DNA from: an uncultured delta proteobacterium | GTDB lineage: Bacteria; Desulfobacterota; Desulfobacteria; Desulfobacterales; B30-G6 | DNA length: 64,000 nt | Assembly (NCBI GenBank): GCA_963823335.1 | Contig: CAWGLD010000001.1 | Coordinates: 544,001-608,000, forward strand | Direction of reading: 5' to 3' | In this document: positions 5,253 through 58,678 of the stretch, one piece after another | Layout of the letters: each line of letters opens with the position of its first letter | Numbering within the stretch: position 1 is the stretch's first letter | Program-made: the position numbers and the translations under genes | Notes under the pieces: model-generated | Told to the model about the DNA's origin: nothing | The model's database searches: none | What the model saw: the letters and a program-made list of their open reading frames with translations, nothing else

Positions 5253-6146
5253 TTATACCCGTTCTATTTCATGGATACCAAAAAGACCATGGGGCTTGAA
5301 CAACAGAATGACCAAAAGGATTATGTAGGGCAGCACATCCGCCGTGCCGTTCAGACCCCAATTGCCGTCCAGGTAACCAGCGGCAAACTGCTGGATCAAC
5401 CCCATAATGATGCCGGCCACAATAGCCCCGAATATGGAATCCAGCCCACCCACGATCACCACCGGAAACACGATGATGCCGAATGATTGCAGCACATCAA
5501 AATTCAATCCCGTGATATTGCCGAGAATACCGCCGGCCGCAGCCGCACTCAGGCCGGCAGCGGCCCAGGCAAGGCCGAACACCTTCGGGACCGAAATGCC
5601 GATGGACATGGAAGCGAACTGATCGTCCGACACCGCCCGCATGGAGATACCCACCGTGGATGCCTTGAAGAACCAGGTAAATGCGCCGATCATGATGAAG
5701 GTGATGACCACGCCCACCAGTTGGGTCCAGGAGATTGAGATGCCCAAGAATGCTATGGGTGTCTTGGGTAAAAATTCCGGAAACGAAAAATTTCCTGCGC
5801 CAAAAGGCGTCATGTAGATGATACCATCGATGATGGACATCAACCCGATGGTTACCATGATGACCGATATGATAGGTTCACCGATGAGTCTACGCAGAAA
5901 CACACGCTCCACACTCATGGCCAGGAAAAAGGTAATAACCATGCTCAGCAGAAAAGAAATCACGATGTGGATGCCCACAAAGACAGTGAGGGCATAGGTG
6001 ATGAAAGCCCCGGCAGCGATGATCTGCCCGTGGGCAATGTTCAGCACACGGCTCGACTTATAGATCAGCACAAACCCCAGGGCCGAAAGCGCATAGATGG
6101 ATCCCACCACCACACCGCTGATGACCAGTTGAAAAAAATAACTCAT
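5253..6146 (-). CDS. livH: HAAT ABC transporter permease (LivH-like)
   Basis: GSIYALSALGFVLIYK, NIAHG, MRAVSDD, VGGLDS, KPHGLFG. Confidence 0.9.
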   Translation of the reverse strand: MSYFFQLVISGVVVGSIYALSALGFVLIYKSSRVLNIAHGQIIAAGAFITYALTVFVGIHIVISFLLSMVITFFLAMSVERVFLRRLIGEPIISVIMVTIGLMSIIDGIIYMTPFGAGNFSFPEFLPKTPIAFLGISISWTQLVGVVITFIMIGAFTWFFKASTVGISMRAVSDDQFASMSIGISVPKVFGLAWAAAGLSAAAAGGILGNITGLNFDVLQSFGIIVFPVVIVGGLDSIFGAIVAGIIMGLIQQFAAGYLDGNWGLNGTADVLPYIILLVILLFKPHGLFGIHEIERV

Positions 6147-8071
6147 GCAACCCCTTCCATTGTGTAAAACAACATTTCAGCCTCCACGGTCGTGGTCTGG
6201 CCATCCTGGTATTGGAAATCAGCTTCGACTTGCTTTTTGTGGACGCTCTCATCGTAAAGCGCTTCGTAGAGGTCCTTGTATTTTTCCATGACAAATTTCC
6301 GTCGTATTTTTCCGGTTTTGGTCAGCTCACCGTCATCCATGTCCAGCAGTTTGTACAAAACAGCGAAGCGTTTGATCCTGAAATGGTCTTTTTCCGCCCG
6401 TGCGTTGACGTCGGCCACCGCTTCTTTAAGTAGTTCCGCGACCTCCGGTTTGCCGGAAAGATCCATGTAGGTGGTGAAGGATATGCCCCGATCTTCGGCC
6501 CATTTACCCACCACAATGGGGTCGACATTGACCAGCGCCGCCACATAATCCCGTTGGTTCCCGAAAATAACCGCCTCCTTGATATAAGGGCTGAATTTGA
6601 GTTTGTTTTCCAGGAACATGGGGCTGAACATCTCGCCTTTGCTGTTGTGCATCACATCGGATACCCGGTCGATGACCACCAGATGACCGTTCTCGTCGAT
6701 ATATCCGGCATCCCCCGAGTGCATCCATCCGTCATGCAGCAACTCATCGGTTTTTTCGTCCTGCTTGAAATATCCCTTACACACCGAAGGCGAGCGCGAC
6801 AGAATCTCGCCTGCTTCGCTTATTTTGCACTCGGTTTCAGGCAAGGGCTTACCCACCGTATCCGGACGGACATCCCCGTCCCTGTGCATATAGGCAATGC
6901 CGACAATCTCCGTCTGTCCGTAGATCTGTTTCAGGTTAACACCGATAGCCTGGTAAAAGGTGAACAGCTCGGGACCCAGTGCTGCACCACCGGTGTAGGC
7001 CCTGCGCAGCCTGCTCAGACCGATCTGGTTGATCAACGGGTCCGTTACCAGGATCTTTCCCAGCCAGGCCATGAAACGCAGGGATGCGGGCATTTTTTCC
7101 CCGCGCATCCGGTATTGGGCCGCTTTCTCCCCGATCCTGATAAACTTGTTGTAGGCCAAACGGTTGAGCCAGTAGGATTCGTCTATTTTCAGCCAGATCT
7201 GCGAACGTATGGTTTCGTATATCCTAGGTGCGCCAAACATGAAATGGGGTCCGACCTCCTTGAGGTCCTCCATACTGGTTTCCACCGATTCCGGAAAGTT
7301 GATGGTGATGCCGGTGGCCATGGCCACACCAAAAGAGTTCATTTGCTCACCGATCCAGGCAAAGGGCAAAAAAGAAACATATTCGTCGGTATCTTCCAGG
7401 CGATCGACCTTGGAAAGTTGAATCCCCATATTGATGTAGTTTCTGTGGGTCATCATAGATGCCTTGGGCAGACCGGTGGTACCCGAGGTCAAGCAGAAAT
7501 GACACACGTCTTCCGGGTTTCCCTGCTCGATCATGGCCTCATATTTTTCGGGCTGCTCTGCGTGAATTTCTGCGCCCATTTCGTAGAGATCTTTTATGAG
7601 TAGAAACCAGTCATCGGACCGATAGCTGCGCATGCCACGCGGATCTTCGTAGATGACTTTCCGCACCCGGGGGATACGCTCGCGGATATCAACCAGTTTA
7701 TCTACCTGCTCCTGATCGTCGCAAAAAACGGCCGTGACGTCCATATAGTTGATCAAATCGGCTATTTCATCGGGCAGAGTGGTTTGATATATTCCGGCCG
7801 AGACCGCGCCCAGGGACTGGGCACCAATGGCCATGAACAACATTTCCGGGATATTGTCCCCTATCAGGGCTAGTTTGTCGCCTTTCTTGACACCCACTTT
7901 TTCTAGCCCCAGGGCAATCTTCCTTACGTATTCGTAATAGTCGTTCCAGGTGTAGTTATTCCAGTATCCGAAATCCTTTTCGCGCAAAGCGACTTTCGTC
8001 CCGGTCTCTTTGACCCGCCAGCGTAATAGCTGGGGAATAGTGAGTTCTAATAACTGATTATTGTCTTTCAT
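6143..8071 (-). CDS. Long-chain-fatty-acid--CoA ligase (AMP-binding)
   Basis: TSGTTGLPK, YGQTE, GWMHSGDAG, ELTKTGKIRR motifs. Confidence 0.9.
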   Translation of the reverse strand: MKDNNQLLELTIPQLLRWRVKETGTKVALREKDFGYWNNYTWNDYYEYVRKIALGLEKVGVKKGDKLALIGDNIPEMLFMAIGAQSLGAVSAGIYQTTLPDEIADLINYMDVTAVFCDDQEQVDKLVDIRERIPRVRKVIYEDPRGMRSYRSDDWFLLIKDLYEMGAEIHAEQPEKYEAMIEQGNPEDVCHFCLTSGTTGLPKASMMTHRNYINMGIQLSKVDRLEDTDEYVSFLPFAWIGEQMNSFGVAMATGITINFPESVETSMEDLKEVGPHFMFGAPRIYETIRSQIWLKIDESYWLNRLAYNKFIRIGEKAAQYRMRGEKMPASLRFMAWLGKILVTDPLINQIGLSRLRRAYTGGAALGPELFTFYQAIGVNLKQIYGQTEIVGIAYMHRDGDVRPDTVGKPLPETECKISEAGEILSRSPSVCKGYFKQDEKTDELLHDGWMHSGDAGYIDENGHLVVIDRVSDVMHNSKGEMFSPMFLENKLKFSPYIKEAVIFGNQRDYVAALVNVDPIVVGKWAEDRGISFTTYMDLSGKPEVAELLKEAVADVNARAEKDHFRIKRFAVLYKLLDMDDGELTKTGKIRRKFVMEKYKDLYEALYDESVHKKQVEADFQYQDGQTTTVEAEMLFYTMEGVA

Positions 8072-15034: not shown

Positions 15035-15913
15035 ATGATTATCAAACCCGATTGCATCCCCTGTATCTTGAACATGTCTTTGCACTATCTTCGCAAACTG
15101 TCCCTTGGCGAGGAACAGGTCAACAAGATCTGTTCAGATATTCTGACATTGCGACCCCTCAGGGGAGAGATATGGGATATCACCAGCCCGGAAATCATCG
15201 AGCCGATCATGAAGAAAATCATGTCCGCTGTCGGCAGTCACGATCCCTTTGCAGTTGAAAGGGTAAAGCAGAACCAGAAGATGCTGACGCTGTATCCACA
15301 GCTGCAAAAAATGGTAAAGACAGCTGAGCATCCATTTAAAGCAGCAGCACACCTCGCCGGTCTTGGAAATGCCATCGATGTCATGCTGGTGGGGGGTGCC
15401 ACAGATATTCAGAAAATCATCAAAGAACAACTCGCCGATCCTCTGCCGGAAAATGTATTAGAGATACTTGAAAAACGGATCATGAGCAGTCGCCACATTC
15501 TCTACTTTGGCGACAATGCCGGAGAAATCGTTCTGGACAGGCTGTTCATCGAAACGATCAAAGAGCACTATGATACAGACATTACCTTTGTGGTCAGAAG
15601 TATGCCGACCTTGAACGATGCAACCCTGAAAGATGCAGAACAGACAGGTATGGCCAATCTGGTGCGTGTCATGGAGAACGGTATCGATGGTCCTGTCCCC
15701 GGAACCCTGCTGAATCGATGCTCAGGTGAGTTGCAGCGTCTTTTTCAGGAGGCGGATCTGATCATATCCAAAGGCGGTGGGAATTTTGACACCCTGGATG
15801 AGCTGCCGGAGAAGCGCAAAAGCAAGATATCCTATCTGCTGCTGTCAAAATGCCGCCCCTACCAAGAGCATTTTGGTGTGGGATTGCAGCGGGCGATACT
15901 ATTTAACGCTTAG
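15035..15913 (+). CDS. DUF89/ARMT1-like damage-control phosphatase
   Basis: N-terminal CxxC (DCIPC), GNAID, DNAGEIVLD, LNDAT, ISKGGGNF, KC. Confidence 0.88.
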   Translation: MIIKPDCIPCILNMSLHYLRKLSLGEEQVNKICSDILTLRPLRGEIWDITSPEIIEPIMKKIMSAVGSHDPFAVERVKQNQKMLTLYPQLQKMVKTAEHPFKAAAHLAGLGNAIDVMLVGGATDIQKIIKEQLADPLPENVLEILEKRIMSSRHILYFGDNAGEIVLDRLFIETIKEHYDTDITFVVRSMPTLNDATLKDAEQTGMANLVRVMENGIDGPVPGTLLNRCSGELQRLFQEADLIISKGGGNFDTLDELPEKRKSKISYLLLSKCRPYQEHFGVGLQRAILFNA

Positions 15914-15927
15914 AGAACTTTAAAAAA

Positions 15928-16110
15928 GGGTTTGAGGGTGATACAAGGGTGGTACAAGGGTTCGAGGGGGATAAAGGGGTTCGAGGGTCAGAGGGGGATA
16001 CAAGGGTTGGAGGGTGGCTGACAGCAGTTAGCGAAAGGCACCTAATAGTCTACAGTCTAAACCGCTAAAAGGCTAACCAGGGGTGGAGGGTGGTACAGGG
16101 GTTGGAGGGA
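15928..16110 (+). repeat. G-tract post-stop element, copy B (longest)
   Basis: About ten GGG tracts, then the core TGGCTGACAGCAGTTAGCGAAAGGCACCTAATAGTCTACAGTCTAAACCGCTAAAAGGCTAACCAGGG. Confidence 0.8.
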
Positions 16111-16116
16111 AATAAC

Positions 16117-16328
16117 TGTCATTTGCTTCGCGTAAATGAAAATGTTTCAGCTGTTAGGTTTTAAGTGTTAGGTAAGTCACGGGCTAAGAGCAACAATAAA
16201 TTACGCGCGCAGCGCAAATGACAGCCGAAGGCGAAATGTCGCGCGCAGCGCAAATGTCGTCCGCTAGGACAAATGACGCACGAAGTGCAAATGACATCCG
16301 AAGGATAAATGACGCCTGAAAGGCGAAT
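16117..16328 (+). repeat. Mini-hairpin array 1 (7 units of ~18 bp)
   Basis: AAATG(A/T)C linker plus variable 4-bp stem with GCA/GAA loop; inverted unit TGTCATTTGCTTCGC upstream. Confidence 0.8.
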
Positions 16329-16342
16329 GCACAGGGGGGCCC

Positions 16343-17554
16343 ATGCAGAAACCAAGCGTACTTCTTGTGGCAACAATGGATACCAAGTTCAGGGAAGCCG
16401 GCTTCATAGAATCCTGTCTCAAAGAATCCGGCTGTGCGGTCACGGTTATGGATGCCGGGATTCGTGGCGATAGCCCCGTACCTGTCACAATTACAAGACA
16501 CGAAGTCGCCCGGGCCGGCGGAAAAACATTATCGGAAATTCAATCCATAGGCCACGAAGGCGAAGCTCTCAACATGATGCTCATGGGCGCCTGCAGGATT
16601 GCGGACGAAATGATCGCCAAGGGTGCCGTCATTGGTGTCATAAGTCTGGGCGGCTCCATGGGAACCACACTCGGTACGGGTGTCATGCGCCGATTTCCCA
16701 TCGGGGTCCCAAAGGTGATGATCTCCACCATGGCCTCCAGGGATACCCGCACGTTTGTGGGAACAAAAGACATTCTTATGCTGCACGCCGTCTGTGATCT
16801 CTCGGGCCTCAACCGGTTTTCGAGAAAAATACTCCACAACGGCGCCATGGCCCTCTACGGCATGGTGTCCCGGAGCCGGAAAGACATTTCATCAGACAAA
16901 TCCATGATCTTTATTTCCACTCTGGGAACCACCGAGAAATGTGTTCAGGAGATACGCGCCTCCCTCGAAAAACAGGGTAAGGAAGTCGTGGTCTTTCACA
17001 CGGTGGGTTCCGGCGGCAGAGCCATGGAAGAACTCATCGCCTCAGAACCGGTTGAAGCCCTGGTGGACCTCTCCCTGCATGAAATGGCGGATCATCGTTT
17101 CGGAGGGGATTACGATGCAGGACCTGACAGGGGTTCCGTGGCATTGAAAAAGGGGATTCCGGTCGTCCTGGTACCCGGAAATATCGATTTTCTTGTGTCA
17201 GGACCGCTGGAGCAGTCCCTGAAAGATTTTCCCGATCGGCCGTACCATGTTCACAATACAGCCATTACGGTTGTACGAACGACCCGTGAAGAGATTGAAA
17301 GCATTGCCCGGCATGTAGGGGATTATTGTAATGCCGCCCCTGGACCGTACACCCTGGTAATTCCCATGAAGGGATTTTCAGCCTTTGACGCCATAGAGGG
17401 GCCGCTTCACGACCCCCAGGCACCGACCTGCTTTGTCAAAGCCCTGGAATCCCAGCTGTCCGACACATCACGGATGCACACCCTGCCATACCACATCAAT
17501 GATTCCGGCTTTTCTGCAGCTGTGATTGAAAAGCTCCAAGAACTGTTGCCCTGA
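16343..17554 (+). CDS. Tm-1-like ATP-binding protein (UPF0261), paralog 2
   Basis: ATMDTKFRE, GGSMGT, FPIGVPKVMIST, FHTVGSGGRAMEEL, HINDSGFS. Confidence 0.88.
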   Translation: MQKPSVLLVATMDTKFREAGFIESCLKESGCAVTVMDAGIRGDSPVPVTITRHEVARAGGKTLSEIQSIGHEGEALNMMLMGACRIADEMIAKGAVIGVISLGGSMGTTLGTGVMRRFPIGVPKVMISTMASRDTRTFVGTKDILMLHAVCDLSGLNRFSRKILHNGAMALYGMVSRSRKDISSDKSMIFISTLGTTEKCVQEIRASLEKQGKEVVVFHTVGSGGRAMEELIASEPVEALVDLSLHEMADHRFGGDYDAGPDRGSVALKKGIPVVLVPGNIDFLVSGPLEQSLKDFPDRPYHVHNTAITVVRTTREEIESIARHVGDYCNAAPGPYTLVIPMKGFSAFDAIEGPLHDPQAPTCFVKALESQLSDTSRMHTLPYHINDSGFSAAVIEKLQELLP

Positions 17555-19825: not shown

Positions 19826-19942
19826 GTTTTAGGTGTTAGGTATTAAGTTTTAGGTTCAGCCACAAGACAGGTGCCCCTTTGCTGTCCGCTAATGGCCGTC
19901 ACCCTTATACCACCCTCCGACCCTCCAACCCCCTCATCACCC
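19826..19942 (-). repeat. G-tract post-stop element, diverged minus copy plus CTAAAAC heptamers
   Basis: Reverse complement: GGG tracts, ...GGGGCACCTG..., ACCTAAAACTTAATACCTAACACCTAAAAC; follows the LysR stop. Confidence 0.55.
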
Positions 19943-24239: not shown

Positions 24240-24388
24240 GGGTTCGAGGGTCCGAGGGTCCGAGTGGCGAAGGGTGGCTGACGGCAGTGAGCGAAAGGCA
24301 CCTGCAGCCTATCGTCTAAACGCCTAAAAGAAGTGCTTGGTTCTCAGCTGAAATTAACACTAAAACCTAAAACCTAAAACGAAAATAC
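24240..24388 (+). repeat. G-tract post-stop element, copy C, plus CTAAAAC heptamers
   Basis: GGGTCCGA octamers, core TGGCTGACGGCAGTGAGCGAAAGGCACCT, then ACTAAAACCTAAAACCTAAAAC. Confidence 0.75.
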
Positions 24389-26527: not shown

Positions 26528-26607
26528 ATCACGAAAGCACGAAAGTACGAAAACACGAAAATTTTCATGGTCTTTTTCGTGTTTTTCAGATTTCGTGTTT
26601 TCGTGAT
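26528..26607. repeat. Inverted array of CACGAAA(A/G) octamers
   Basis: Four direct units followed by 3-4 reverse-complement units, forming a long imperfect hairpin. Confidence 0.75.
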
Positions 26608-40545: not shown

Positions 40546-40591
40546 TTAAAACCTAACACCTAAAACTTAAAACCGTCTTAAACTTAAAACC
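40546..40591 (+). repeat. CTAAAAC/CTAACAC heptamer tract
   Basis: CTTAAAACCTAACACCTAAAACTTAAAACC...CTTAAAACC upstream of lutA. Confidence 0.55.
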
Positions 40592-40600
40592 AGAATTAAT

Positions 40601-41365: not shown

Positions 41366-41531
41366 TGTCATTTGCTTCGCGATATTTATGGTCATTTACT
41401 TCGTGTCATTTATTGTAGCTATCAGCTATGAGCAACAATAAATGACGCCCGCAGGGCAAATGTCGCGCGCAGCGCAAATGACATCCGAAGGATTAATGAC
41501 GCCCGCAGGGCAAACGGCGTCCGAAGGAAAT
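41366..41531 (+). repeat. Mini-hairpin array 2 (5 units of 18 bp)
   Basis: Same linker/hairpin units and the same GCTA(A/T)GAGCAACAATAAAT leader as array 1; inverted units upstream. Confidence 0.8.
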
Positions 41532-41532
41532 A

Positions 41533-42945
41533 ATGAAACCATCGAGCTACACGCGTCTGTCCCAATCGGCCATAAAAGATCCTGTGCTCCACACCGCCCT
41601 GGCAAACCTCCAGGAACGGTTCGGCAAGGGCGCGGCCCTGGGGTACCGGAAATTTCCGGAGGGACCGGGGCTGCGTCTCAAGGCCCATGATATCCGCATG
41701 AATGCCATCGAAAATCTCGACATCCTGCTGGAAACCCTCGCCCGAAACATCCGCGGAAACGGAGGCCATGTTCATTTTGCCCGGGATGCCCAGACGGCTG
41801 TGGACTGCTGTCTCGACATCGCCCGTAAGCATGACGTGAGCATGGCGGTCAAGGGCAAATCCATGCTCAGTGAAGAAATCGGGCTCAACAAGGCCCTTCA
41901 AGAGGCCGGTATCGAAGCCGTGGAGACCGATCTGGGGGAATACATCATCCAGCTGGCCGGCGAAACACCGTCCCACATCATCGCACCCGCCGTTCACAAA
42001 ACCCGGCAGCAGGTGGGCCGTCTCTTTCAGAAAAAGCTGGGTATCCCCTATTCCGAGGATCCGCCCACCCTGACCCTGGCTGCCAGAAAAGCCCTGCGGG
42101 AAAAATTTTTGAAAGCCGAAATGGGCATCTCGGGCTGCAACCTGGCCTGTGCTGAAACCGGTCACATCACCACCGTGTCCAACGAGGGCAATATCCGCAT
42201 GTCCACCACCCTGCCCCGGGTGCACGTGGCCTTCATGGGCATGGAACGGGTTGTGGCCGATCTCAAGGACCACGAAATTTTTTTCCGTCTGCTTTCCATG
42301 GGCGGTGCCGCCCAGAACATGGCTGGCTATGTCAGCTACCGCGGCGGCCTGGGAGACAAAGGCCTCCTGGGCGGACCGGGTGAGTTTCATCTGATCGTCA
42401 TCGACAACGGTCGCAGCCGGATCCTCGCCGATCCCGACTTCAAGGAGATGCTCTGCTGCATCCGTTGCGGGGGCTGTCTCAACATCTGCCCGGTATACGG
42501 GGAAATCGGCGGACATGCTTACAATTCCCCTTATTCCGGACCGGTGGGGGCTGTTGTCACGCCCCTGTTACAAGGGATCAACCGCCATGCCGACCTCTGC
42601 CAGGGAGAGTCTCTGTGCGGGGCCTGCATGGATGCCTGCCCCGTCAACATCGACATCCCCCGCATGCTGCTTCGGCTGCGCCAGAAACTGGCCGAGGGAG
42701 ACCCCTCCTGGAATGTCACGATCAAGAGTCGCCTGGATCAGGCCGTTTTTGCCGCCTGGTCACTCCTGATCCGCAATCCGCGTCTTTACGATTTGTTTCT
42801 AAAATCCGCTGTTGTGGGTCAGAAATTTCTGCCCGGAAAAGAACAGATGATCTCCAGGCTCCCTTTTTCCGGCAAAGGCTGGACCGACAGCCGGGATCTC
42901 AAGAAATTCGCCCAAAAGCGCTTTTTGGATCGTGGAAGATCATGA
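41533..42945 (+). CDS. lutB: Lactate utilisation protein B (Fe-S)
   Basis: KGKSMLSEE, ETDLGEYIIQL, NEGN, CIRCGGCLNICP, CGACMDACPV. Confidence 0.9.
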   Translation: MKPSSYTRLSQSAIKDPVLHTALANLQERFGKGAALGYRKFPEGPGLRLKAHDIRMNAIENLDILLETLARNIRGNGGHVHFARDAQTAVDCCLDIARKHDVSMAVKGKSMLSEEIGLNKALQEAGIEAVETDLGEYIIQLAGETPSHIIAPAVHKTRQQVGRLFQKKLGIPYSEDPPTLTLAARKALREKFLKAEMGISGCNLACAETGHITTVSNEGNIRMSTTLPRVHVAFMGMERVVADLKDHEIFFRLLSMGGAAQNMAGYVSYRGGLGDKGLLGGPGEFHLIVIDNGRSRILADPDFKEMLCCIRCGGCLNICPVYGEIGGHAYNSPYSGPVGAVVTPLLQGINRHADLCQGESLCGACMDACPVNIDIPRMLLRLRQKLAEGDPSWNVTIKSRLDQAVFAAWSLLIRNPRLYDLFLKSAVVGQKFLPGKEQMISRLPFSGKGWTDSRDLKKFAQKRFLDRGRS

Positions 42946-58359: not shown

Positions 58360-58391
58360 CCATCCCCAAGTTAGTGCCAACTAAAAGCAGA

Positions 58392-58460
58392 GGGGTCAAG
58401 TCTACTCTTAAAAGGGGTCATAAAACATAAAAAGGGGTCAAGTCTACTCTTGACTCTTTT
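58392..58460. repeat. GGGGTCAAGTCTACTCTT direct repeat plus hairpin
   Basis: Two 18-bp copies (58392, 58434); the second forms a hairpin with CTTGACTCTTTT. Confidence 0.6.
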
Positions 58461-58521
58461 CCAGATGACCTCCCAGATTTCTTTTTGAAACGATTTCTAT
58501 GTTTTTCTGTACCCGCACCGA

Positions 58522-58678
58522 TTACCACAGGCGTTTGTTAGCGAAGGCTTTTCCGGAGTGCGATTTCATATATTTCTCGAATGCCAGGGCTTTTTGGCGA
58601 GACTGGAAGGCTGCATAGGAAATGAGCTCCCATGGTTTGTACTTGGAGGTATGGGGTGATTGACCATTGTTGTGCGCG
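58522..58678 (-). pseudogene. C-terminal fragment of a small GIY-YIG nuclease
   Basis: [21 protein letters not shown]...ALAFEKYMKSHSGKAF; the N-terminal GIY-YIG motif is missing. Confidence 0.75.

Follow-up and report, generated by a model that had tools for sequence, protein, structure and literature searches.

The subject of this report is a tandem array of mini-hairpins, array 1, and the family of intergenic repeats to which it belongs, found in a 64,000-nucleotide (nt) stretch of DNA from an uncultured delta proteobacterium of the Desulfobacterales (contig CAWGLD010000001.1, positions 544,001 to 608,000), hereafter the window. The genome that contains the window, G000, comprises 11 contigs and 4.37 Mb, and all other G numbers denote comparison genomes. 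In the window, an ARMT1-like domain gene (15035–15913) and a UPF0261 family gene (16343–17554), both on the plus strand, flank a 429-nt spacer, and array 1 (16198–16325), which lies on the same strand as the two genes, occupies the 3′ end of this spacer. Array 1 consists of seven head-to-tail units of 17–19 nt, each composed of a 7-nt linker of the form AAATDWC (here AAATTAC, AAATGAC or AAATGTC) and a 3–5 bp hairpin with a GNA-type loop (GCA, GAA or GCTA). Specifically, units 1 to 4 read AAATTAC-GCGCGCAGCGC, AAATGAC-AGCCGAAGGCG, AAATGTC-GCGCGCAGCGC and AAATGTC-GTCCGCTAGGAC, and units 5 to 7 read AAATGAC-GCACGAAGTGC, AAATGAC-ATCCGAAGGAT and AAATGAC-GCCTGAAAGGC(G). Written as stem-loop-stem, the inserts are GCGC-GCA-GCGC (twice), (A)GCC-GAA-GGC(G), GTCC-GCTA-GGAC, GCAC-GAA-GTGC, ATCC-GAA-GGAT and GCCT-GAA-AGGC. 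The original prediction, made from the letters of the window, had described the same seven linker and hairpin units, and its description holds, with the exact span being 16198–16325 rather than 16197–16328. In line with the letters, Tandem Repeats Finder reports periods of 18 (6.1 copies) and 36 (3.2 copies, score 143) for array 1. The linker heptamer shows no window-wide enrichment (32 matches versus 24.8 expected), and six of these 32 matches fall within array 1, spaced 18–19 nt apart. Immediately downstream, at 16326–16342 on the plus strand, a degenerate last linker (AATGCAC) and a G-run, likely the ribosome-binding region 5′ of the ATG at 16343, are conserved in G005 bar one change.

Further copies, which the original prediction had suggested seeking in the genome and its relatives, are abundant in the same taxonomic family, and G000 contains 57 arrays of two to eight units in a scan requiring hairpins at 15–21 nt spacing; all of the roughly 57 arrays counted are intergenic. 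For the pairing statistics, units were defined only by their two flanking linkers, which gave 200 inserts of 11 nt across G000. Stem pairing in these inserts is far above chance: 623 of the 800 stem positions are Watson–Crick paired, compared with 345 ± 12 (maximum 387) in 1000 partner shuffles, and the stems of 125 units pair completely. The stem vocabulary is small (GCGC 44, GCAC 24, GTCC 20, GCCC 12, ATCC 9, GCCT 5, and others), the closing pair is C–G in 141 units, and the loop is of the GNA type in 134 units, with GAA (80), GCA (36) and GTA (15) together making up 131. Single stem mismatches comprise 17 G·T and 18 A·C, and this lack of a G·T excess means that no RNA wobble signature is present, the test giving no signal in either direction. 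Within G000, the covariation rests on a few hairpin "words" that are copied many times. Between species, however, an in-place compensatory change is seen at an orthologous unit, which reads GCGCGCAGCGC in G000, G005 and G007 and GTGCGCAGCAC in G004 and G006. Because pairing exceeds that of the shuffles and this in-place change exists, the proposal of the original prediction that compensatory change reflects structure is supported, in the form of selection or drive on structure rather than plain slippage. Additionally, unit length varies between 14 and 19 nt, both inside single genomes and from one genome to another, so that no helical phasing is present, and about a quarter of the linkers have no ATG.

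The arrays constitute the hairpin module of mosaic intergenic repeats. Directly 5′ of most G000 arrays is a conserved junction (..AGCTATCAGCTATGAGCAACAAT), and to the left of this junction lie one to three reversed units with weak 2-bp stems (GTCATTT-GCTTCGC, GTCATTT-ACTTCGT), of which the innermost reversed linker pairs with the first forward linker to form a 12-bp stem. G-run repeats, heptamer-type repeats and a 40-nt module are found farther left in the elements. At the same site in different species these modules are swapped, which identifies the array as one module of a mosaic repeat. In element 1, which ends with array 1, the left part is made up of plus-strand G-run repeat modules (15928–16019 and 16080–16110) and the 40-nt module (16038–16077), together spanning 15928–16110, followed by a single reversed unit with a 2-bp stem on the minus strand (16118–16132; plus strand, GTCATTT-GCTTCGC-G) that represents the same left arm as at many other copies. 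The plus-strand heptamer-type module (GTTAGGTTTTAAGTGTTAGGT, 16153–16176), which was compared with G005, G007, G004 and G006, stands where other copies have the second reversed unit and the central stem, and is followed by the left junction (16184–16197, plus strand) of the GCTAAGAGCAACAAT type ("..AGC(N)AGCAACAAT"), which precedes most arrays of the genome and was compared among orthologues. Element 2 carries array 2 (41440–41528, plus strand), a run of five units between a lutA-like and a lutB-like gene that Tandem Repeats Finder reports as a second tandem array at 41440–41536. Its left arm (41367–41446, plus strand) contains reversed units at 41367–41411 and the 12-bp central stem, in which 41405–41416 pairs with 41435–41446 across an 18-nt loop, and its last unit, GTCCGAAGGA, provides the AAGGA located 5′ of the lutB-like ATG at 41533.

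Two of these modules also occur beyond elements 1 and 2. Heptamer-type tandem repeats (GGTTTTA / TTAGGTA / TAAAACC) at 16153–16176, 19829–19855, 24360–24380 and 40547–40599 accompany hairpin arrays as a mosaic module. The G-run repeats at 15928–16019 and 16080–16110 are of the AGGGTTCGAGGGTGATACAAGGG type, are G-rich on the sense strand and might form quadruplexes; they are dispersed genome-wide, their core being matched exactly at 43 places in G005 and at 3 in G001.

Comparison of orthologous sites reveals that array runs gain and lose whole units as well as blocks of two to four units, with the stems staying paired. In the lutA-lutB spacer, five units are present in G000, eight or nine in G005, and four each in G007 and G003; G008 retains a remnant array, and G001 has a 7-nt spacer. 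The AAGGA supplied by the last unit precedes lutB in both G000 and G005, and AAGGA is also found before the lutB ATG in G003 and G007. At the array 1 site, all seven units recur in unchanged order in G005 (2 differences from G000 in 128 nt), G007 has five of the seven (3 differences over these shared units), and G004 and G006 have three or four; the G001 spacer here is 101 nt long and repeat-free. In an operon on contig C8 of G000, in which each of three successive spacers harbors a sense array, arrays are kept at the three spacers in all three species compared (G000, G005 and G007), their unit number and order differing, with 16 units and a 4-unit period in G007. G007 also contains arrays that are about 60 units long and whose period is 54 nt. 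Array 1 is much better conserved than neutral sites: between G000 and G005, 72 of the 287 four-fold degenerate positions in the genes on either side differ. The 150-nt anchors that flank the array are 95% and 90% identical. In a tree of the LutA and LutB proteins, G001 falls into an unresolved group with array-rich species, and G008 and G009 lie outside it; the near-absence of arrays from G001 is therefore read as loss.

The giant arrays of G007 lie at separate loci, and no neighbouring gene in common was seen. The array of about 60 units (locus L380, G007:C3, about 5950–7050) is antisense to both neighbours and adjoins murA, and a 16-unit array (L384, G007:C1, 2886–3157) is sense and lies between murG and murC. 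Both generate long false open reading frames (ORFs).

Array orientation tracks transcription, not replication. Among arrays of at least three units in G000, those between co-directional genes are co-oriented with the genes in 21 cases and opposed in 3 (binomial p = 2.8e-4), compared with 21 versus 23 relative to the leading strand, as assigned from GC skew, which is clear on the long contigs. The strand bias that the original prediction had raised is thus present, and it follows the direction of transcription. Strong-stem units are nearly confined to the strand that is sense for the neighbouring genes and usually end a few tens of bases ahead of the next start codon. Specifically, in the 1370 co-directional spacers of G000, units with 4-bp stems number 83 sense versus 15 antisense (units of one array are not independent), and units with 2-bp stems number 8 versus 11. 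For 26 arrays with same-strand flanking genes, the downstream start is a median of about 56 nt away and the upstream stop about 106 nt away, based on crude gene calls. Among the matches listed for four genomes of other lineages, which cover 14 distinct loci, 9 loci are co-directional and hold 10 arrays, of which 7 are co-oriented and 3 opposed; both arrays at divergent loci face the adjacent gene.

In line with read-through, arrays lie within operons, as at lutA-lutB and murG-murC. A sigma-70 promoter scan finds no site in element 1 and one weak site in element 2. The consensus for intrinsic terminators, a GC hairpin with a T-run after it on the transcribed strand, has no site on the sense strand of arrays 1 and 2, whereas the antisense strand contains four matches in array 1 (0.4 expected) and one in array 2, these being consensus matches only. 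Contigs from two RNA libraries join a 3-unit variant of array 1 to the downstream gene; such contigs carry no strand, end or abundance information, and DNA carry-over could account for them. They leave 16092–16175 uncovered, a gap that is uninformative.

The distribution of the arrays is patchy, as in mobile DNA, with the same linker in Desulfobacterota, Bacteroidota and Calditrichota. A narrow search pattern matches 12 of the 14 other genomes of the taxonomic family and none of the 26 genomes from the other families of the order. This pattern misses sparse arrays, such that G001 and G011 seemed array-free, yet a relaxed pattern gives 5 matches in G001, 11 in G011, 14 in G009, 24 in G008 and 199 in G005; the array load therefore spans 40-fold within one genus. 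Of 400 further genomes sampled from the phylum, G185 (2) and G178 (1) are the only ones with hairpin-type matches. A scan of one genome per species (at least 116 loci) reveals true arrays in metagenome-assembled genomes labelled Bacteroidales, Saprospiraceae, Lentimicrobiaceae, Calditrichaceae and Calditrichia. Triple-linker matches number 42 in G439, 63 in G443, 0 in G442, 59 in G440 and 32 in G185, compared with 0–3 for a reversed-pattern control; the counts of 42, 59 and 63 come from single genomes of other phyla. Many units in these genomes are the 7-nt GCGAAGC or the 9-nt GGCGAAGCC. Hairpin arrays are absent from 200 other sampled Bacteroidota genomes, a few of which carry the bare heptamer in tandem. 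Viral contigs yield at least 117 loci, and among the matches listed none has all four stem pairs and 3 have three of four, giving no real array.

Linker-type sequences also occur apart from hairpins. In the unrelated genomes G575 (e.g. C1:140638–140678), G111 and G073, the linker heptamer is found alone, as a tandem (CAATGAC)n and in linker-only repeats (AAATGACAAATGAATGTC).

As the original prediction held, the array matches no named element: Rfam returns no match at E values up to 10 for 15800–16500 and none at the gathering score for the whole window, and no description of the element was found in a literature search for which subscription journals were largely out of scope; the supplementary per-species repeat lists of Ssn and REP papers could name a related family. 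Several known systems are similar in kind. Pneumococcal BOX and mycobacterial MIRU elements are modular intergenic repeats with a variable central tandem module that lie in operons, are co-oriented with genes and are transcribed. Their units, however, measure 40–100 nt and have no sequence likeness to the array units, and MIRU contain small coupled ORFs, which the arrays do not consistently have. Cyanobacterial STRR heptamer repeats and small dispersed repeats likewise place heptamer tandems and hairpin repeats in the intergenic space of operons. Intergenic repeats are treated for Nostoc in the available part of PMC2408588. The arrays resemble STRR in that the linker heptamer, too, can form a pure tandem in other genomes, but differ in sequence, and STRR have no described regular alternation of linker and hairpin. 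With respect to the hairpin itself, the d(GCGAAGC)-type C(GNA)G fold is the classic stable DNA mini-hairpin. The d(GNA) loop and its closing pair in stable DNA mini-hairpins are described in the available part of PMC3201870. The array units have this d(cGNAg) loop and closing pair, and many of those in the other phyla are literally GCGAAGC, but such motifs are known as isolated motifs in vitro, whereas here they are arranged in genome-wide tandem arrays with a constant linker.

A further system similar in kind is REP/BIME of enterobacteria and pseudomonads, mobilised by RAYT, a Y1 transposase whose gene is flanked by the repeats and co-occurs with them. In the available part of PMC3733652, REP are described as a terminal GTAG tag beside an imperfect palindrome of 20–40 bp, with high extragenic copy number, mosaic clusters, transcription and conserved pairing, and they lie between co-directional or convergent genes. 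The arrays are similarly extragenic, high in copy number and clustered, with constant linker motifs and copies that vary while pairing is kept. Unlike REP/BIME, they carry AAATDWC (reverse, GWHATTT) instead of GTAG, have 3–5 bp stems, are arranged head to tail rather than alternately, lie near the downstream start instead of after the upstream stop, and show no association with RAYT. The CGTC REPs, to which Neisseria dRS3/NTS and the Ssn-related motifs (SRM) belong, have a CGTC (or TGTC, CCTC) tag 5′ of the palindrome; according to the same portion of PMC3733652, they have 8–9 bp stems starting with AT, loops of 4–5 nt and a CCA tail, and form mostly head-to-head dimers with negligible head-to-tail arrangement. 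Neisseria dRS3/NTS, as outlined in the available part of PMC11893778, combine an oriented unpaired tag (CGTCATTCCCGCG...) with a GC-rich hairpin and are cleaved as single-stranded DNA (ssDNA) by Ssn, a nuclease of the GIY-YIG type. On the reverse strand, many array units read (C)GTCAT followed by a hairpin, as in NTS and SRM so far as these sources show (PMC11893778, PMC3733652). This likeness arises only from GAC-type linkers (AAATGAC, TAATGAC, GAATGAC), which make up about half; the others give GAC, GTA, GAT or GTT. Compared with CGTC REPs and NTS, the arrays have shorter stems of 3–5 bp and loops of 3–4 nt, run head to tail, contain no SRM match and are not linked to an Ssn-like gene.

The original prediction had placed array 1 among ssDNA recognition arrays, for example for an HUH/REP-type transposase or a hairpin-binding protein. 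The part that concerns ssDNA structure retains some support from the fit to C(GNA)G and from the near-equal G·T and A·C mismatches, and a hairpin-binding protein is still a candidate, but the transposase finds no support. None of 20 Y1_Tnp loci (8 + 12 examined) has an array within 1.5 kb, Y1_Tnp is present in 15 of 15 genomes of the family whatever their array load, and no Y1_Tnp match was found in the array-rich G443 and G185. Additionally, because orientation follows transcription and not replication, HUH-type or lagging-strand ssDNA transposition is disfavoured. RAYT, GIY-YIG and four-helix-bundle genes, suggested as neighbours, are not linked to arrays either. Specifically, no unit lies within 1.5 kb of the 12 small GIY-YIG loci of the genus, which we take from their sequences to be UPF0213/YhbQ-like; G005 and G006 have only a UvrC-size match, and small GIY-YIG genes also occur in the array-poor G001. 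No GIY-YIG gene flanked by arrays was found in the other phyla. These GIY-YIG results are indirect, as Pfam cannot separate cd10448, the small single-domain type whose gene is flanked by the repeats in Ssn systems. The published SRM pattern has 29 sites, compared with 27 in a shuffled genome, and none of them falls in arrays. Among the 20 four-helix-bundle (23S_rRNA_IVP) matches in G000, 19 are free of true linker-hairpin units out to 700 nt, and the lone match between inverted arrays is a degraded fragment (C1:744972–745094).

Other assignments were rejected on the structure of the arrays themselves. The original prediction was right that array 1 is not a CRISPR: a 7-nt constant part alternates with a 9–12 nt self-complementary part from a small vocabulary, rather than 24–48 nt repeats with unique spacers. 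A translated repeat was rejected on the finding that three ORFs through arrays hit no Pfam family and that unit-length changes shift the frames, although antisense frames stay open through arrays. A start/stop relay via the overlapping ATGA of the linkers, that is, termination-reinitiation, was rejected on the ATG-less linkers and on frame readings: in array 1 the frame from the first ATG ends about 22 nt before the gene start, and in array 2 the sense ORF would extend 157 nt out of frame into lutB. Folding z-scores are not decisive, with −1.13 (RNA) and −1.29 (DNA) on the sense strand and −0.51 (RNA) and −2.10 (DNA) on the antisense strand; to our knowledge, nearest-neighbour folding models give GNA triloops no special bonus.

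Taken together, we propose, with a probability of roughly 0.45, that the arrays represent a previously undescribed intergenic repeat family, REP/BIME- or BOX-like in kind but not in sequence. In this non-autonomous mosaic repeat, the hairpin module would turn over one unit at a time and persist only in the non-polar (sense) orientation; the family would be lineage-restricted and horizontally patchy. Unit turnover would proceed by linker-to-linker slippage or recombination, aided by stable C(GNA)G hairpins in ssDNA, such that only foldable units keep being copied. The orientation rule, in turn, may be due to selection inside transcripts. A sense transcript would contain hairpins followed by A-rich linkers, and transcription would read through; in the antisense orientation, each unit would present a GC hairpin followed by GUCAUUU, and runs of such units may act as a terminator or pause site. 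DNA and RNA could be reconciled if the hairpins matter in DNA for copying, with transcription filtering the orientation, so that the stable strand would be accepted when it is the non-template (mRNA-like) one, on which the units have no terminator likeness. This proposal requires no host function, and a transcribed array may still alter the stability or translation of the downstream cistron. In line with dispensability, G001 has the 7-nt spacer between lutA and lutB and the 101-nt repeat-free spacer at the array 1 site.

Several points weigh against this proposal. No mobilising enzyme was found, so the seeding of new sites is unexplained, and the sharing of one linker, AAATGAC, by three phyla points to a conserved reader. 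If slippage acted alone, it should depend on the replication strand, but no such dependence is seen (21 versus 23). The conservation of array 1 suggests purifying selection on its sequence, and hence function; since the flanking anchors are also 95% and 90% identical, a local recombination tract may be responsible instead. Arrays are also kept at five of five examined sites in G005 and G007, the nearest-neighbour folding z-scores are weak (−0.5 to −2.1), and the antisense terminator activity is a consensus match, not a measurement.

Alternatively, the array may be an RNA-level cis element, selected within a 5′ leader or intercistronic RNA, where short GC hairpins and exposed A-rich AAAUGAC linkers might shield the downstream cistron from decay, leave its ribosome-binding region open, or serve as a binding site for the 30S subunit or an RNA-binding protein. 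We regard this as rather unlikely overall, but it would account for the sense orientation in G000 and, at 7 versus 3, in the four other genomes, for arrays ending near start codons, for the AAGGA that the last unit gives to lutB in G000 and G005, for conservation of array 1 far above that of four-fold sites, for retention at all five orthologous sites, and for the RNA-library contigs linking array and gene, if these do not derive from carried-over DNA. Such an element, however, should tolerate G·U pairs, which are not in excess (17 versus 18), and GNA triloops with a C–G closing pair are the hallmark of stable DNA mini-hairpins, not of GNRA or UNCG tetraloops. The RNA folding z-score is just −1.1, unit number and order are free, the load varies 40-fold in one genus with G001 operons running without arrays, and the giant G007 array is antisense to both of its neighbours.

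Another alternative is an ssDNA recognition array, in which the hairpin and single-stranded tag of each unit would be recognised on a single DNA strand by a nuclease, transposase or binding protein that acts in trans; by analogy with REP-RAYT or NTS-Ssn, the reader enzyme would spread units and resize arrays. The C(GNA)G motif with its strand-specific loop, the missing wobble signature, the patchy cross-phylum spread typical of mobile DNA, the inverted-arm architecture resembling REPIN or head-to-head dimers, and the reverse-strand (C)GTCAT plus hairpin, which resembles the CGTC tag of NTS/SRM in the parts of the sources available (PMC11893778, PMC3733652), all fit such an array. We nevertheless consider it unlikely: none of the 20 Y1_Tnp loci or 12 small GIY-YIG loci has one nearby, Y1_Tnp was not found in G443 and G185, small GIY-YIG genes are present in the array-poor G001, the SRM pattern occurs barely more often than in a shuffled genome and never in an array, and orientation is independent of the replication strand. 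Double-stranded DNA binding sites, either iteron-like or for a nucleoid protein, and a translated repeat appear highly improbable. The constant heptamer, the regular spacing and the open antisense frames could be taken in their favour, but unit lengths of 14–19 nt give no helical phasing, the variable part keeps pairing rather than sequence, and translation conflicts with the lack of Pfam matches, with frames broken by unit-length changes and with the 157-nt out-of-frame run into lutB. The small remaining probability falls to readings not considered here.

A further possibility, which we hold to be doubtful, is that the array serves as a cis-acting platform and that a putative factor, which reads the sense strand as mRNA or non-template DNA, sets the expression or stability of the downstream gene. 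Such a reader would be common to, or transferred among, Desulfobacterota, Bacteroidota and Calditrichota. If true, REP-RAYT and NTS-Ssn would be joined by a third pairing of repeat and protein, one that is miniaturised, tandem and bound to the direction of transcription. The function and spread of REP-like repeats are an old question in general, and this family offers unusually clean handles for it, namely an 18-nt unit, a fixed linker, a hairpin matching the most stable known DNA mini-hairpin, a strict tie to transcription direction, fast unit turnover, close relatives whose copy numbers run from 5 to about 200, and independent occurrences in three phyla. In practical terms, the arrays break short-read assemblies, yield false antisense ORFs and could serve as strain markers.

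Additional observations concern other repeats and genes. In a carboxyltransferase operon, a gene of about 1.4 kb, presumably biotin carboxylase-like by reading of its sequence without a family search, lies between two operon genes in G005 (L219, G005:C28), persists as a remnant in G007 (L220, G007:C15) and is gone in G000 (L201, G000:C8), and repeat modules are located at the scar of the lost gene. The 23S_rRNA_IVP family, with its 20 matches in G000 (e.g. C2:127769–128083), has any match in 1 of 14 control genomes. At 58390–58674 of the window, a truncated GIY-YIG fragment (58549–58674, minus strand) lies beside direct repeats (GGGGTCAAGTCTACTCTT) that hold a GTCAAG/CTTGAC hairpin. At 26530–26605, four copies of CACGAAAG are followed by four copies of the inverse, TTTTCGTG, forming a long interrupted palindrome of 8-mers. 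Finally, another dispersed element of G000, unrelated to the arrays, begins with about 100 nt of conserved sequence and ends in two short hairpins and a T-run, with copies at C1:746673–746713, C1:802519–802559, C1:1697656–1697696 and C5:268590–268631.

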